Virus record (IMG/VR): IMGVR_UViG_3300020414_001694
Location: 11,242-75,241 of that record
Origin: a virus
Lineage: Duplodnaviria > Caudoviricetes
DNA length: 64,000 bases
Strand: one strand, 5' to 3'
Below are positions 5,368 to 29,756 of the stretch, piece by piece. A program made the translations under genes and the position numbers. The first letter of the stretch is position 1, and each line of letters begins with the position of its first letter. The notes beneath the pieces are model-generated. The model worked only from the letters and a program-made list of their open reading frames with translations. It did not search any database and was not told the origin of the DNA.

Positions 5368-5535
5368 TTATAAATAGTTTTTTCTTAATTTGAGGATTAC
5401 TTTATCTCGCTTTTTGGCAAGTTTATATATCTCCTCATCTATGGTCGCCTTCTCCCTAGTAAGATTCACTATCTTCAAATTCAACCTTGATATCTTCATA
5501 GAAAGTTTTTCTTTTTCTTCTTCTTTTTCTTGTGC
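5368..5535 (-). CDS. Short coiled-coil protein
   Basis: MAQEKEEE...; heptad-like; start approximate. Confidence 0.45.
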   Translation of the reverse strand, partial: AQEKEEEKEKLSMKISRLNLKIVNLTREKATIDEEIYKLAKKRDKVILKLRKNYL

Positions 5536-9606: not shown

Positions 9607-9682
9607 TGGTGGAGGTGAGGAGATTCGAACTCCTGACCTTCTGCGTGCAAGGCAGACGTTCTCCCAACTGAACTACACCCCC
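9607..9682 (-). tRNA. tRNA-Ala(UGC)
   Basis: GGGGGTG/CACCTCC stem with G3:U70, anticodon TGC, encoded CCA. Confidence 0.95.
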
Positions 9683-9705
9683 ATGTCTTTTTAAATAGTT
9701 ACCAA

Positions 9706-9915
9706 CTAAAAACCCATCCAAGGACCAGACATCTCATCCATCCTAATTAATCTCAACTCATCAATAAAATGCTTGGCAACAATACCGTCAGACCATCTTA
9801 CTAATGCTAACTTATCTTCGAAAACCTGAACTACTCTGCCTGTTACTTTCGGTTCAGTTCTTACAAGTTTTACAAAATCATCTTGCTTTATTTTCTTATT
9901 ATAATCTTTATTCAT
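9706..9915 (-). CDS. SH3-like small protein
   Basis: DFVKLV...TGRVVQV...LVRW...ELRLI; likely start at MNKDY. Confidence 0.6.
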   Translation of the reverse strand: MNKDYNKKIKQDDFVKLVRTEPKVTGRVVQVFEDKLALVRWSDGIVAKHFIDELRLIRMDEMSGPWMGF

Positions 9916-9932
9916 TCTCTTGTTAACTCCTT

Positions 9933-10274
9933 TTAAAAAAAGATTTGAATCAAAACAACTGTAAGTGCAAGTGTAAAGCAAATCATTGTTTTTGTTGTAA
10001 ACATAGATTCACCAAGCAAGACGTAAGTTAGGATAGGAAATATAACTATCCCTACACTCGAACCTATAAACCTCGCCGACCAAACTGAACCTGCTGCATC
10101 CGCTGCTGTGGTCCAAGCATAGTAAAACATCATAGAGCATGGAATGCCCCAGACTAAAGCAGAGATAAATGCCTTGCCCCTCCACCATTCCCAGATGTAC
10201 TGCGAGTTCAACTGGAACCATGCGAATAGTTGTGCCATTGTGAACAGGGCAACTGCTTTTAAGACTGCCGTCAT
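9933..10274 (-). CDS. Four-TM membrane protein (DMT/SMR-like)
   Basis: Four hydrophobic segments, LLGE near TM4. Confidence 0.55.
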   Translation of the reverse strand: MTAVLKAVALFTMAQLFAWFQLNSQYIWEWWRGKAFISALVWGIPCSMMFYYAWTTAADAAGSVWSARFIGSSVGIVIFPILTYVLLGESMFTTKTMICFTLALTVVLIQIFF

Positions 10275-21548: not shown

Positions 21549-23633
21549 TTAGAAGCACATTCGTAGCGTGAAATCAAGACGAATTTTAGAACTAACAGGC
21601 ATGAAATAGTTTTCCTCGGCAGGAAGTGATGCAGACTCATCTGGCAGACAAATCTCATCAAGTATGGACATTAAATCTTCATACATCTGGTCTGCACTAG
21701 AAGATAATTCAAATCTTTCACCACCAGTCTCGTTAACGTAATCATCCCAAGTTCTCCCCTGAAAACCTCCGTTGGTAAAGGCATACAACTTAGTGTTCGG
21801 AGAGGAACCGAGTGCTTCAATCACCTCTGGTTTCCGAATCTTTGGCGACATATAAGATTGGTCTTCTTCATCAGTAAATAATATTACAATTCTATCTGCA
21901 TCAGTTCTCCAGTTTACTCTAAAAAACTTTAATTCTGGAATAGAGTGAATATCCCGACCCATAGACTGACCCCATACTGCTCCTTGTAAGTCGTAAGGCA
22001 GAGTCGTTGCGATAGAGCGAACAGATAAATACAATGCGTCTCTGAGCATCTCCGAAGAAGAACCTGATTCAAATGCACCTGCCGAAGAAAATGCGCTCAT
22101 AAAAGTGGAAAAATCTGTGATGTCAGAATCTAGTCTCAAATATTCTGGAAGGTTAACGTTTCTTGTCCCAGGTGTTGGGAAAACTCTCGGTCCTGTAATC
22201 AATCCCCACTTTAACTTTCCTTCCGCAGAGAACTGAGTAGCGAACCTAGTCATTGCCATTCTTACGGCATTGATGTTATATTCCATAGAACCAGACCAAT
22301 CCAAAATAAAAAGAATATCTGTGTCTGGTATGACTTGACCAAAATCTGTCGTACCATCGCAGTCGTTGTCTGCTCCGTCACATATCTCTCTGCTTGGTAC
22401 AACCTCGCCTGCACAAAAGTCAAGGACGTAATTGCCGCTACTGGTCTCCCCATACCACTGACCGTTTTGACATATCTGATTTCCTGGAGTGCAAACGCCG
22501 ACACCTCCTGTTCCTTCTGGTCCAGAGTAGCAAGATTTCTCTAAACTCTCGTCAATTAACTCATCACAATCTTCATCAAAGTTGTTACACATCTCAGGTT
22601 CTACTGGCATGCCCAGAGTCTCGTCGCAAGTATCCTCTGAGTCTTCTGGGACTATCTCTGGTGGCAACCAAGCGCAGAGTGCAAGACAGTCTGACATTTT
22701 TGTTATAGTACAATCTTCGTTGTCGCATTCGCAAGTCTTAAACCCCATGCCGCAAGAGAGAGGAGGTTCACCGCAAGGTAAGAGAGCGCCCACCATTTCG
22801 GGAGGGCACTGACAGTTCAACCCCTCGTCAACTCTACCGTCGCAGTCAGAGTCGAAACCATCGCACGCCTCTTCATATGGTTGTTGTGCAGTGCAACCAA
22901 TCCAGTTTCCTTGCTCGCAAACTTCGATACCTCTTTCGCAATCAGTGACACACTCTTTAACTAAGTTTTCATCAATCTGCCCATCACAGTCGTTATCAAT
23001 ATTGTCGCAAGTATCTGGTGGTAACTGCCCACACTCTCCACATTCATTTAGTTGGTTTTCATCTATCAAGTCATCGCAATCATTATCCTGACCATCACAC
23101 ACTTCGTCAGTGCTATAGCAAGACACACACTCGCCATATGAAAGTCTACCCTTATCACAGACGACCTCCTGAGTTCCTGGTCTACCTTCAATCTCACAAT
23201 CGTAATACATTGTAAAGTCTTCATTTATCCCTGGTGGGCAATCAAAAGCATGAGTACATCCCGTTTCAAAAATAATCTCTGCTGGTGGACAAGTATCGTT
23301 TATGCTTCTATCACAGGGAACATAGTCGTCGCCACAGATATCTAGGATTGCTTCTTTGGCAAGTATCTCCGTACCTCTCGGAGGACAATACCAGGTCTGC
23401 CTTTGGCAGCAACGAGGGTGACATTGGCAGTAGTTATCATCTGTGTTCTGAACTCCCTCGCAAGGGTCAACGTAGGCATCCACTGTAATGTCTGGAAGTA
23501 GTTGAACAATTTGAACATCAGGAGACATAATATCCCCAGTTACTGCTCGCTGCTGACTATCTGTCTCGCTGAACTGTGTCACTTCGTCTTGACAAGCAAA
23601 GAGCAAGACTAATGGAATCAATAGTTTAAGCAT
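21549..23633 (-). CDS. Cys-rich lipoprotein with MopE-like repeats and C-terminal VWA domain
   Basis: Lipobox LFAC; five CDGxDNDCDxxxDE-type repeats; MIDAS DWSGS and FTDEED. Confidence 0.85.
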   Translation of the reverse strand: MLKLLIPLVLLFACQDEVTQFSETDSQQRAVTGDIMSPDVQIVQLLPDITVDAYVDPCEGVQNTDDNYCQCHPRCCQRQTWYCPPRGTEILAKEAILDICGDDYVPCDRSINDTCPPAEIIFETGCTHAFDCPPGINEDFTMYYDCEIEGRPGTQEVVCDKGRLSYGECVSCYSTDEVCDGQDNDCDDLIDENQLNECGECGQLPPDTCDNIDNDCDGQIDENLVKECVTDCERGIEVCEQGNWIGCTAQQPYEEACDGFDSDCDGRVDEGLNCQCPPEMVGALLPCGEPPLSCGMGFKTCECDNEDCTITKMSDCLALCAWLPPEIVPEDSEDTCDETLGMPVEPEMCNNFDEDCDELIDESLEKSCYSGPEGTGGVGVCTPGNQICQNGQWYGETSSGNYVLDFCAGEVVPSREICDGADNDCDGTTDFGQVIPDTDILFILDWSGSMEYNINAVRMAMTRFATQFSAEGKLKWGLITGPRVFPTPGTRNVNLPEYLRLDSDITDFSTFMSAFSSAGAFESGSSSEMLRDALYLSVRSIATTLPYDLQGAVWGQSMGRDIHSIPELKFFRVNWRTDADRIVILFTDEEDQSYMSPKIRKPEVIEALGSSPNTKLYAFTNGGFQGRTWDDYVNETGGERFELSSSADQMYEDLMSILDEICLPDESASLPAEENYFMPVSSKIRLDFTLRMCF

Positions 23634-24468: not shown

Positions 24469-24849
24469 TCAGGAATTTTGTTTTTCTCTGTAATCTTCGA
24501 TGGCAGATTTGATTGCGTCCTCTGCAAGCACTGAGCAGTGGATTTTTACTGGAGGAAGCGAGAGGTGCTCTGCGATATCCTTGTTTTTTACCTCTTTTGC
24601 TTCGTCCAAGGTCATGCCCTTCAACCACTCTGTTGCGAGCGATGACGCTGCGATTGCAGAACCGCAACCATAAGTTTTAAAGCGTGCCTCTTTAATAACG
24701 CCGTCTTCAACTTTTATTTGCAGGCGCATCACATCTCCACAAGCAGGAGCACCGACCAAACCAGTACCAACGTCAAGCGCATTCTTGTCCAGGGTGCCTA
24801 CGTTTCTTGGATTCTCGTAGTGGTCTAGAACTTCTTTTGAGTAAGTCAT
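24469..24849 (-). CDS. iscU: Fe-S scaffold protein
   Basis: HYENPRNVG, APACGD, GCGSAIA, LPPVKIHC. Confidence 0.97.
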   Translation of the reverse strand: MTYSKEVLDHYENPRNVGTLDKNALDVGTGLVGAPACGDVMRLQIKVEDGVIKEARFKTYGCGSAIAASSLATEWLKGMTLDEAKEVKNKDIAEHLSLPPVKIHCSVLAEDAIKSAIEDYREKQNS

Positions 24850-25298
24850 AGATTGCTCTTGTCTTGCCATTCGTGAGAAATTTGGTCATCAACGATAGGA
24901 CCGCCCTTTGCCCAAGTGTAGCAAGACCTAGCAGAGTGGCACTTGAAGTGGTGCATCCAGCAGTAACCCAACTCTCCGTCCTTGTCGGTAGTTACACCTG
25001 GCATACATTCTTTCATTCTAGGAGAAATGTCGAAGGCGACACAATTAGAGCAGTTAGATTTCTTTGCTGCCTTCTCTGTAGTGTCCCAATATTTTGCGAT
25101 GTCTTTCCAGTAGTCGCCAGGTTCATCAACATTCAATGGACCGTATTTTATGTGGTCTGCGTGGATGGCAGCATCTCTATTCTTCGTGTTGAGTTTCAAG
25201 TCTTGAGTTGCTGGTGGGCAAACGTAATCCTTTACCTTTCCCACAGTGACTTTCACCTCGCTCATAAACTTGCGCCAATTTTCCATTAATTGTTTCAT
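24846..25298 (-). CDS. HiPIP-like Cys protein with 'ENWRKF' N-terminus
   Basis: CSNC...GYC-x12-CYTW; ATGA overlap with iscU. Confidence 0.55.
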   Translation of the reverse strand: MKQLMENWRKFMSEVKVTVGKVKDYVCPPATQDLKLNTKNRDAAIHADHIKYGPLNVDEPGDYWKDIAKYWDTTEKAAKKSNCSNCVAFDISPRMKECMPGVTTDKDGELGYCWMHHFKCHSARSCYTWAKGGPIVDDQISHEWQDKSNL

Positions 25299-25301
25299 AA
25301 T

Positions 25302-27296
25302 CTATCTCTTTGTGTAACTCTTGGTTACTTTGCCCTTTTTTGTAGCAGCAACGTTTTGCTTGCCCTTCTTTGTGCCTGCTCGCTTCTTTGCGTTGTCTGC
25401 TGCCTTTTCACCCTTAGACATCTTCGCCCACTTTGCCTTTGGTTTGCAACGCTCAACTGAACCGTCTTCACGACCATCGCCACAAGGTGTTCCATCAGAG
25501 TGAACCCACTTTTCGTCTGCCCACTTTTGTAAGTCACCCTCTTCGATGCTCTCGTCTTTCTTGCCTCGACCGTAGTTATCATCTTTACAGTATTTAGAAG
25601 CAATCTGTGCTGCACGAGCAGACCAGTTCTTGAGAACACCGTCTTCACACTTAACATCTTTAATCCCTGGCGAGTCAGAGTTTACAACAAACTTTAGACC
25701 TGCTGTGCAAATCTCTTTGTCAGAGTAGCAACCGCCTTCTTCTTCAAGTCGTTGGACAATAGTTTCCCTGACTCTTGTGCGAAGTGCTTCGTCTGCTTTG
25801 ATGCAGTTACGATATTGTTTGCCGAACATTTCTTTTGTCTTTCTGGTAGGATGTGTCTTGTAACCCTTTTGGCACTTGCCCGCTTCTTCGAGTTTGCCAA
25901 TGACATCCTCAATCACCATACGAATTTCTTCAGTGGTATACTCTTCTTTCATAGACTTTTTACCACGGCATTTCCACTTCTTTCTGGAAAGGTTGTTAGG
26001 AGTGTTGGGGTCATTCTGCTTTTCTTTGGACAACCCTTTCTTGATTCCGTAAGAGCGAGCGCAATAACTATCTCCCTTAGAAGTACCTGGAGCAATCCTG
26101 TATCCCTTTGCTCCATAACTAACTTTTTTCTTTCTACCAGTCTTGGGATTAGTCACAGTCTTTGAATATTTCTTGCCCTTTGCTGGTTCTTCATCGAGCA
26201 TATTCAAAACCTCTTCCTTAATCTTTTGTATCAAATCTTCATTCTTGACCTGTGCAGGGAGACCCTTGTGCTTGGTTCCAGCAAAATCATCAACCTGCTT
26301 TGTAGTCATTTTATCTGCTTTGCTCTTCATTTCTGCGTCGGGGCAATCGCCGTCCTCTTTGCACTTTTTTAACATACCGAAGTATCTTTGTTGCGCCTTA
26401 GAGACTGCTTTTTCATCAAGTTCTCCTTCTTCCTTCATCTTGATAGGTTTTACGATACTCCTTTGATACTCGCCGTCGTCCTTATCTAAAATCTTTTCTG
26501 CTACATGCCCAACAACATCTGCAACGGTCGCCTGCTCGTTTGTCTTTCTCAATTGAGAAAGAATTTTTGAGACATCGCCTGAGTCCATTGCCTGAAAAAC
26601 TTTTATTACGAGTTCGTAAAGTCCTTCCTTTGTGTAACCAAACTCGTCAACCTTATCGTTGAGAGCGTCCATGTCATCCATCGAAAGAACTGCTTCGTCA
26701 ACCTTTTCAGAAGATAAAGACATCAAGGTATTCCAGTGTTCATCTGATATACCCCTCGGAGGTTTGCCATCAGTCTTCTGAGCAATAGCATCCAGTGCCG
26801 ACCTGTACTTCTTTTTTGATTTTGGCGTTGGATTATCAGAAAGGTTATGTACCATGTCTGCCAATTTTACACGAAGAGTGGGAACGTCACCCATCAAACC
26901 GACAACATAAGACTGGTAATCCCCACCTTTTTCGTGGGTTAGGGCACGAACAACCCTGATAACTTCATCTGCTGATGCTGGGTCTTGAATCGAACCCTTA
27001 ATGTAATCTTCCATCTCCTCGACCGTCGATACAGTAGAACCAGGAGCATCTTCAAGGGCATCATGTAAAAGTGCTGCCATCTGAATAACATTGTCTTTTG
27101 GATAAAACTTTCTCGCAATATTCCTGACCTCTGATGGATGAGAGAAATAGTCCGAACCATCTCTTCTCTTTTGACCAACGTGTGCCATCTGTGCTGTCTG
27201 ATAGACATCTTTAAAGTCTTCTGGTGAAAACTTCTCTTCTACTTTTTTATTTTCTCGCAAGTACTTTTGCCAATTGTCTGTAATCTTGTTGCTCAT
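25302..27296 (-). CDS. Multidomain protein: RelA/SpoT-type HD hydrolase plus basic Cys-containing modules
   Basis: AHVGQKRRDG..YFSHP, LLHDALED, VKLADMVHN. Confidence 0.85.
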   Translation of the reverse strand: MSNKITDNWQKYLRENKKVEEKFSPEDFKDVYQTAQMAHVGQKRRDGSDYFSHPSEVRNIARKFYPKDNVIQMAALLHDALEDAPGSTVSTVEEMEDYIKGSIQDPASADEVIRVVRALTHEKGGDYQSYVVGLMGDVPTLRVKLADMVHNLSDNPTPKSKKKYRSALDAIAQKTDGKPPRGISDEHWNTLMSLSSEKVDEAVLSMDDMDALNDKVDEFGYTKEGLYELVIKVFQAMDSGDVSKILSQLRKTNEQATVADVVGHVAEKILDKDDGEYQRSIVKPIKMKEEGELDEKAVSKAQQRYFGMLKKCKEDGDCPDAEMKSKADKMTTKQVDDFAGTKHKGLPAQVKNEDLIQKIKEEVLNMLDEEPAKGKKYSKTVTNPKTGRKKKVSYGAKGYRIAPGTSKGDSYCARSYGIKKGLSKEKQNDPNTPNNLSRKKWKCRGKKSMKEEYTTEEIRMVIEDVIGKLEEAGKCQKGYKTHPTRKTKEMFGKQYRNCIKADEALRTRVRETIVQRLEEEGGCYSDKEICTAGLKFVVNSDSPGIKDVKCEDGVLKNWSARAAQIASKYCKDDNYGRGKKDESIEEGDLQKWADEKWVHSDGTPCGDGREDGSVERCKPKAKWAKMSKGEKAADNAKKRAGTKKGKQNVAATKKGKVTKSYTKR

Positions 27297-27305
27297 TTTT
27301 ATTCC

Positions 27306-27551
27306 TTATCTCAGAGAAGGGTCTCTGTGTGTGTTTTTTAATTTTGGTATAAAATCTTTTTTCAATTTCAGGAGTCGCTCAAACTTTACTTTAGACTGCG
27401 TATCCAAGTACATTACCTGGGGTTTTTTATATTCACCATTGATAAGTAAGTCATCAAAATCATAAAACTTTGTCTTTGGCGAATCTTCTTGTGCCTCTAC
27501 ATTAGCACAAAGTAAGAGAATTGTTAATGCTGCCAATAGTGTTTTCTTCAT
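27306..27551 (-). CDS. CglF/GltF-like small secreted protein
   Basis: Signal peptide; KTKFYDFDDLLINGEYKKP...F.RLLKLKKDF pattern. Confidence 0.6.
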   Translation of the reverse strand: MKKTLLAALTILLLCANVEAQEDSPKTKFYDFDDLLINGEYKKPQVMYLDTQSKVKFERLLKLKKDFIPKLKNTHRDPSLR

Positions 27552-27589
27552 TTGTTTGCGCTCCAAGTCATAATAAATAGTTCGAAAAC

Positions 27590-27616
27590 AAAGAAAAAGG
27601 CACCCGAAGGTGCCTT
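27590..27616 (-). terminator. Intrinsic terminator after hsp20
   Basis: AAGGCACC-TTCG-GGTGCCTT followed by U-tract. Confidence 0.85.
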
Positions 27617-28213: not shown

Positions 28214-28354
28214 TTATCTTTTTACTGAAATTACCATTGGTGTCTCAATGGTAATAAACTCTTGTGCTTGAGCGGTAGGTAACTTTGGTGCAGACGCCAA
28301 AGAAACAATAGAAGCACCAAGAACAAAGGTGCCCGCAATCTTTAAAAACTTCAT
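28214..28354 (-). CDS. 46-aa secreted peptide precursor
   Basis: MKFLKIAGTFVLGASIVSLASA-PKLPTAQAQEFITIETPMVISVKR; AAGGAG SD; TTTACT-N16-TATACT promoter. Confidence 0.7.
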   Translation of the reverse strand: MKFLKIAGTFVLGASIVSLASAPKLPTAQAQEFITIETPMVISVKR

Positions 28355-29093: not shown

Positions 29094-29756
29094 TCACTCC
29101 ACTAAACGATGGTACCAGAGTGGAAGGTGAGTATAACCGTCAGAGGTTGCAACTGCTGCTTCAAATGCAGACTTGCTGTAACGGACACCTCTCCCACTAC
29201 CTGTTCCTAAATAGCCTCCCATAAACCTTTCTGACCATGTTCCTGCTGGGTCATTGGTCGTATATGAGTTTCCATCGAATCCCGTAGCAACAAGAACGTG
29301 CCCATATCCTGTGAAATATCCGTGAATTATCGTTGGTTTTCCTTCTCGTAGTAATCGCTGTAACTCTTCAAGAGTCCCATAGAGAACGGGTTCAATGCGT
29401 GCCCCAATTCCCTCTCTTTGTGCGATTGTGTTGAAGACGTTAGCCAACCCTTGAGGCGACTGAGCATAATCTTTACCCCATTCCCTAGTAATGTCATCTG
29501 GAACTCCCTGCCAACCATACTTTGCCAACAACATCGCAATGGAAGTGTTCTGACAGGTTGAACCTGGACTTACATAGTTATCATACTGATAAAAGTAAGG
29601 AAGTTCTGAGTTATTAGTTTCTTCCTCGTGTGCCTCACATTGTGAGACATCGTTGTCCTTTTGTGAGACCTGCTTGTCTCCATAGTTTTCTGGAAATTCC
29701 TCAATAGTTCCGCAGGCAACCAAGAATAGTGCTAATAGTGTTATATTTTTCATCAT
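29094..29756 (-). CDS. Lipoprotein with C39-like cysteine peptidase domain
   Basis: Lipobox LVAC; CQNTS (Cys), GHVLV (His), NDP (Asp). Confidence 0.8.
   Translation of the reverse strand: MMKNITLLALFLVACGTIEEFPENYGDKQVSQKDNDVSQCEAHEEETNNSELPYFYQYDNYVSPGSTCQNTSIAMLLAKYGWQGVPDDITREWGKDYAQSPQGLANVFNTIAQREGIGARIEPVLYGTLEELQRLLREGKPTIIHGYFTGYGHVLVATGFDGNSYTTNDPAGTWSERFMGGYLGTGSGRGVRYSKSAFEAAVATSDGYTHLPLWYHRLVE

Follow-up and report, generated by a model that had tools for sequence, protein, structure and literature searches.

A marine T4-like phage carries a gltF-like gene of the F2 class, a paralogous class found in Glt-like gene clusters of Myxococcota

Why does a phage carry a gene for a small exported protein that resembles a component of a myxobacterial gliding machine, and is this protein the gliding component itself or something else? 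In Myxococcus xanthus, GltF is an exported protein that localises to focal adhesions; gliding depends on it, as does the clustering of GltD (PMC3169522). The searched literature, including a 2026 survey of myxophages, contained no account of a Glt component carried by a phage. The window, i.e., the whole stretch of 64,000 nucleotides that was analysed, is part of a virus record of IMG/VR that has a length of 75 kb and an estimated completeness of 41%. The window has a G+C content of 41%, it contains four tRNA genes, and nearly all of its large open reading frames are located on the minus strand. The T4-type replication genes that are present encode a family B DNA polymerase, a UvsX-like recombinase, a DnaB-like helicase, and a ribonucleotide reductase, and the source is a marine T4-like phage.

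The gltF-like gene (27306..27551, minus strand) has 81 codons plus the stop codon, and it was defined from the list of open reading frames, the sequence, the match to the family NF033764, and the identity to the F2 genes (see below). Its start codon is the ATG at 27551, and the product has 81 amino acids. The listed start, a TTG at 27566, is an unlikely candidate because it overlaps the Shine-Dalgarno sequence GGAG (27561..27564, minus strand), which is located 9 nt before the ATG. The signal peptide and the motif that the sequence-only reading had quoted are present in this frame exactly as quoted. Residues 1-20 (MKKTLLAALTILLLCANVEA; 27492..27551, minus strand) were assigned to the signal peptide based on a reading of the sequence, the alignment, and an AF2 model, and cleavage by signal peptidase I likely occurs after VEA and before QED. 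In the alignment, the phage and the cellular copies have variable hydrophobic leaders that end with A-x-A before Q/D/E. Past the signal peptide the translation reads QEDSPKTKFYDFDDLLINGEYKKPQVMY...KVKFERLLKLKKDFIPKLK, and, according to the alignment and the AF2 model, the mature protein (27309..27491, minus strand) has a conserved strand-like segment near the N-terminus (KTKFYDFDDLLINGEYKKP) and a helix near the C-terminus (KFERLLKLKKDFIPKLK). The codon make-up of the gene is AT-rich, with a GC3 value of 0.35.

A phage motif had been noticed ahead of the gene, and the octamer ACTATTTA was indeed found at 27574..27581 (minus strand), 22 nt upstream of the ATG. The window contains nine copies of this octamer versus an expectation of 2.6, and eight of the nine are on the coding strand (minus-strand copies at 5371, 9692, 19204, 20768, 24460, 27574, 39454, and 62619). 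The copies precede genes, one directly precedes the tRNA-Ala/Arg/Thr cluster, and the sequence after the motif is AT-rich; judged from this distribution, the motif is probably a phage promoter element. Further upstream, a terminator scan revealed a strong intrinsic terminator at 27597..27616 (minus strand), which consists of a hairpin with an 8-pair stem, including five GC pairs, and a T run. It sits after the hsp20 gene and separates it from the gltF-like unit. The promoter-like motif of its own and the upstream terminator indicate that the gltF-like gene can be expressed independently.

An NCBIfam search with the 81-aa protein yielded NF033764 (gliding_CglF) as the sole match, with an E-value of 1.5e-9 and 37.7 bits, and residues 20-73 were aligned with positions 30-83 of the 88 profile positions. 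The match was recovered in a six-frame search of the whole 75-kb record, and the significant profile match to CglF/GltF by which the sequence-only reading was to stand or fall therefore exists, although its score falls below the equivalog cut-off of 90 bits. No match was found in Pfam and PHROGs; in a collection of phage GenBank entries there was no nucleotide match, and the protein search gave a chance-level match only. GltF of M. xanthus, which is identical to CglF (MXAN_4868, NF033764), and the phage protein are both small (80-90 aa) and exported, and they have the motif K-x-T/K-x-[YF]-x-F-x-D-x-x-[ILV]-x-G-x-x-x-x-P ... L-[IL]-x-[IL]-[KR]-x-x-F in common. The invariant columns of an alignment of the family (K26, F29, Y30, F32, D34, I37, G39, K43, P44, F57, L60, D77, and L80) are held by two conserved segments, KTKFYxFDDLLIxGxxKKP and KFERLLxLKKxF. 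The AF2 monomer model, which is of low confidence (pLDDT 69, pTM 0.28), is mostly unstructured and contains helices at residues 2-16 and 51-74, the latter being the one long helix of the mature protein. In this respect it is similar to GltF, which is mostly disordered in published AlphaFold models (PMC11761067). On these sequence features, the phage protein is a member of the GltF-like family in a broad sense, i.e., it is small and exported and has a conserved strand motif as well as a C-terminal amphipathic helix.

The genomic positions of the cellular relatives agree with this assignment. In two Myxococcota metagenome-assembled genomes (MAGs), relatives with 43-46% identity are encoded between GltE-like and GltJ/G-like genes, and in both cases GltC and a large TPR protein are encoded upstream. 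Of 401 evenly sampled Myxococcota genomes, 228 contained a match to the phage protein, about 120 of them at E <=1e-12, and the best matches reached 58-70% identity. For the 12 best cellular matches the surrounding 20 kb were fetched (loci L029-L040). All 12 have the gene order GltC, GltD-like, GltE, F, GltJ-like, and thus the relatives of the phage protein follow gltE as GltF does, in a C-D-E-F-G/J order between gltE-type and gltG/J-type genes. Two of these loci were annotated further, and in both an OMP_myx_plus beta-barrel protein is encoded at the upstream end of the cluster (region 565-2815 in L032, which is from genome G283, and region 891-3080 in L030). In L032 the product of the gene before the barrel has 456 aa and weakly matches VWA, and its counterpart in L030 (442 aa) had no match in NCBIfam. 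In the low-G+C genome G283, flgB and flgC, which are flagellar rod genes, follow the cluster at a distance of 4 kb (L032 16189-17042), and this is unusual for Myxococcota. In locus L040 (genome G113) the F gene is duplicated in tandem (9635-9892 and 9903-10202), and the upstream copy is far more divergent.

Is this F gene the gltF of the gliding machine? When the same 401 genomes were searched with the CglF model, a second locus, with scores of 69-91 bits, came to light in 11 of the 12 genomes with the best phage-like genes. This second type was named F1, and the phage-like type F2. In two genomes F1 and F2 are located on one contig, 90-100 kb apart, showing that the two-locus pattern is not a binning artefact. 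Five F1 loci were fetched, and they revealed another cluster whose genes are arranged in the same way (GltC-D-E-F1-GltG). The F1 genes in clusters of this type score 77-91 bits. The scores of the F1 cluster are much closer to the Myxococcus gliding equivalogs than those of the F2 cluster. In one annotated F1 cluster GltC had 382 bits (cut-off 450), GltE 119 (225), CglF 87.4 (90), and GltG, which has an FHA domain, 353 (650), versus 185 bits for GltC, 50-74 for GltE, 28-36 for CglF, and 75-121 for the GltJ-like protein of the F2 cluster, which has an N-terminal zinc ribbon. In the searches of the 401 genomes, only the F2 cluster was found in two low-G+C genomes, G283 and G358.

The phage protein was compared with both types from the same genomes in one alignment. 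Its 57 mature residues are 63-72% identical to cellular F2, and some phage copies reach about 84%, whereas the identity to F1 is only 26-28%. Together with the grouping in a tree (see below), these values place the phage gene as an orthologue of the paralogous F2 class. The comparison of sequences has thus shown that it is an F2-class member of the GltF family and not an orthologue of the gliding protein CglF/GltF, i.e., of the F gene in the gliding-type GltC-D-E-F-GltG(FHA) cluster. Of the earlier proposal of a CglF/GltF-like protein, the family relationship stood, and the equation with the gliding protein itself did not. The phage copy and cellular F2 of the 12 loci have the same length and the same type of signal peptide. 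They differ in that the phage copy has small changes typical of phages (ING for IDG and T-H/K-RD for TAKD), and in that it comes without the partners C2, D2, E2, and GltJ-like. A comparison of the whole virus record with the cellular F2 regions revealed no shared gene besides the gltF-like gene, which stands alone in the phage. It has been described that disruption of Glt-like clusters of M. xanthus, which have no assigned function, left motility intact (Luciano et al., PMC3169522), and the F2 genes are possibly comparable to two of these clusters, G4 and G5.

A search of 5.8 billion proteins yielded 862 relatives of the gltF-like protein. The closest ones are 61-96% identical and are encoded on contigs of 30-210 kb from marine metagenomes, and the nearest clusters in the ESM Atlas are all viral. 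Some of the contigs are syntenic with the window (GroEL, ClpP, rhodanese, Hsp20, IscU, and HD protein), and others are clearly viral and organised differently. In one of the latter the gltF-like gene and the end of a PG_binding_1 gene overlap, and genes for an M15 peptidase and a PG_binding_1/GDSL lipase adjoin the gltF-like gene, and in another one it lies between genes for proteins of 1276 aa and 1450 aa, so that copies occur in at least three phage genomic contexts. When phage copies were compared pairwise, synonymous sites were saturated (pS 0.7-1.0) and pN was 0.07-0.18, indicating long-standing, strong purifying selection. The comparisons of sequences have thus shown that a T4-like marine phage lineage captured the gene and kept it.

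In the window and its syntenic relatives the gltF-like gene is surrounded by chaperone, Fe-S, and HD-domain genes. A gene for a 664-aa protein (25302-27296, minus strand) starts 10 nt past the gltF-like stop codon; the protein has an N-terminal HD domain of the RelA/SpoT type followed by a long basic, Cys-containing tail, and its length varies from 482 to 705 aa across related phages. The iscU gene is located at 24469-24870 (minus strand), and its product scored 219.5 bits, above the equivalog cut-off. Two further exported proteins are predicted nearby. A 46-aa ORF (28214-28354, minus strand) encodes a signal peptide and a mature peptide of 15 residues (..ITIETPMVISVKR). It is nearly letter-for-letter identical in all syntenic phage loci that were fetched, where it directly precedes either the gltF-like gene or hsp20 followed by the gltF-like gene, and it had no cellular counterpart in the glt loci. 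The ORF at 29094-29756 (minus strand) encodes a predicted lipoprotein (lipobox LVAC) with a C39-like/C70 papain-type peptidase domain.

It had been suggested that the gene points to the host, and at the level of the phylum this was borne out, as the closest relatives in cellular genomes belong to Myxococcota and are gltF-type genes by their position. The phage host likely belongs to this phylum, because the family is restricted (gltF was found only in Myxococcales and Bdellovibrionales; PMC3169522), because the identity to F2 is high, and because the MopE-type Cys repeats of a neighbouring protein are common in Myxococcota. Further probes did not narrow the host. When a 20-kb DNA query was searched against the 401 Myxococcota genomes, only iscU, the MopE repeats, and the gltF-like gene gave matches, and no CRISPR-spacer-like perfect match was found. 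Phage IscU is 75-76% identical at the protein level and about 70% at the DNA level to IscU of two Myxococcota genomes, both of which also hold best F2 matches. IscU evolves slowly. Phage GroEL is only 43-44% identical to the Myxococcota copies. A maximum likelihood tree was built from the 57 mature residues, and one of its clades (support 99/95) unites seven of the eight phage copies with F2 of two low-G+C genomes. The pairwise dN values of the phage copies were lowest to mid-G+C genomes, and composition bias may therefore drive the grouping with the low-G+C genomes. The Asp-to-Asn change that phage and low-G+C F2 have in common could also be compositional. For these reasons the low-G+C lineage was rejected as a demonstrated host.

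The sequence-only reading had also drawn attention to a VWA lipoprotein about 4 kb downstream and had taken the two proteins together as possible look-alikes of the gliding apparatus. The lipoprotein was readily confirmed: an ORF of 694 aa (21549..23633, minus strand), which starts 3.7 kb beyond the gltF-like stop codon, encodes a protein with a lipobox (LFAC), about 50 Cys residues, Cys-rich MopE-type repeats (PF11617, E 4.7e-13), and a C-terminal VWA domain with the MIDAS motif DWSGS. In Pfam the VWA match is weak (19 bits), but AF2 predicted a confident alpha/beta domain at residues 438-662 with a VWA fold (pLDDT 80-94), and a Foldseek search against the PDB gave integrin beta I-like domains as best matches (E about 1e-7). 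Based on these predictions, the protein is a true lipoprotein, and its VWA domain is integrin-beta-like. With CglD and CglB of M. xanthus it has in common that they are Cys-rich lipoproteins with Asp-rich metal-binding repeats before a C-terminal VWA domain with MIDAS, and the fold matches are as reported for CglD (bioRxiv 10.1101/2023.10.19.562135).

However, no link in sequence to the Glt/Cgl adhesins was seen, and this part of the earlier reading was not upheld. A search with the VWA part alone revealed no sequence relative in five Myxococcota genomes, and in five more genomes the matches of a whole-protein profile were confined to the repeat region and stopped before the VWA domain. The CDGxDNDCD repeats themselves are widespread, with 58-221 matching places per genome in nine of ten Myxococcota genomes searched. 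The 694-aa protein had no match in NCBIfam, its VWA domain had none among PDB sequences, and no similarity was found to the VWA proteins of the Glt-like cluster or to the proteins encoded upstream of the F2-cluster barrel. Its 133 relatives are found in related phages and all have the same phage-type architecture. The likeness to the Cgl adhesins is thus a resemblance and not membership, and for the gltF-like gene the lipoprotein is context only.

What could an isolated F2 protein do for a phage? Published models of the Myxococcus protein offer a starting point. A strand of GltF is predicted to pair with the TonB-like C-terminal domain of the inner-membrane protein GltG, and its C-terminal helix to lie in a groove of GltC, a TPR protein associated with the outer membrane; no contact was predicted with GltJ (PMC11761067), and the neighbour of F2 is GltJ-like. 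These contacts are predictions for an F1-type protein and not for F2, and the two conserved segments of the phage protein correspond only roughly, by profile alignment, to the strand and helix regions, under the assumption that the annotated 89-aa GltF corresponds to the C-terminal portion of the 147-aa protein in PMC11761067. Both segments, which are better conserved than the rest of the phage protein, are invariant or nearly so in the phage copies, and their conservation is as tight as in the host copies. Judged from this conservation and the predicted contacts, the phage protein may well be, with about an even chance, a working substitute for host F2, a periplasmic linker in a Glt-like machine. 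It would be exported to the host periplasm, would replace host F2 as the small linker, and would keep the machine coupled, or more strongly coupled, at a time when the expression of host genes falls. Phage copies of labile host subunits follow the same logic. The retention of both segments favours such a substitute over a jammer, but a linker with two sides, when present in excess, can separate its partners just as readily as it can join them.

Interference by the phage protein is the main alternative, and it is regarded as possible but rather unlikely. An excess of F2, or F2 made at the wrong time, would titrate the TonB-type domain of the GltJ-like protein and GltC2 apart and uncouple the machine; surface movement or adhesion would stop. 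If the outer-membrane module were the phage receptor, superinfection would be excluded and progeny would be spared from sticking to debris. In the published model GltF bridges two partners (PMC11761067), and a bridge is sensitive to dose; the possibility of independent expression would suit such a role, as would the lack of the other Glt parts that the phage would need to build more machines. Disabling receptors is an established theme for small exported phage proteins, e.g., T5 Llp and Cor. An inhibitor, however, would need only one of the two interface segments, and both are conserved. It is highly unlikely that the protein acts on the Agl-Glt gliding motor as a true CglF/GltF orthologue. 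This reading could refer to gliding_CglF as the only named family match and to a motif that is common to both classes, but it was largely refuted by the low score, the separate F1 gene in the GltC-D-E-F-GltG cluster of the same genomes, and the much higher identity to F2. A role in lysis or egress, in which a periplasm-spanning linker couples or disrupts the inner and the outer membrane late in infection, is very unlikely as well: the gene adjoins peptidoglycan-binding, peptidase, and lipase genes in another phage lineage, but its neighbours in the window and the syntenic relatives are not lysis genes, and its conservation tracks host F2 and not a lysis protein. The cellular origin of the gene is all that would speak for a functionless passenger recently acquired from the host, and this is hardly credible, as it is contradicted by the conserved protein at saturated synonymous sites, the 862 relatives, and the retention in different contexts across diverse phages.

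A bolder version of mimicry can be envisaged, although it is improbable. The F2 copy might mimic a motor linker and thereby allow the phage to rewire an envelope motor of the TonB-like, Glt type, so that the outer-membrane module would be uncoupled or re-aimed; the integrin-like VWA lipoprotein encoded by the phage would possibly take over as surface adhesin. If this were true, infected cells would change what they stick to, or would close to further infection, and this would amount to a novel way in which phages control how bacteria behave at surfaces.

Irrespective of the mechanism, the gene provides a host marker, pointing to Myxococcota, for a large and abundant group of uncultured marine T4-like phages. 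The window also gives a clean demonstration of the split between F1 and F2, with evidence from gene clusters. Finally, the gene draws attention to the small linker as a point at which a second Glt-like machine may be controlled; many Myxococcota have this machine, and some have it as their only one.
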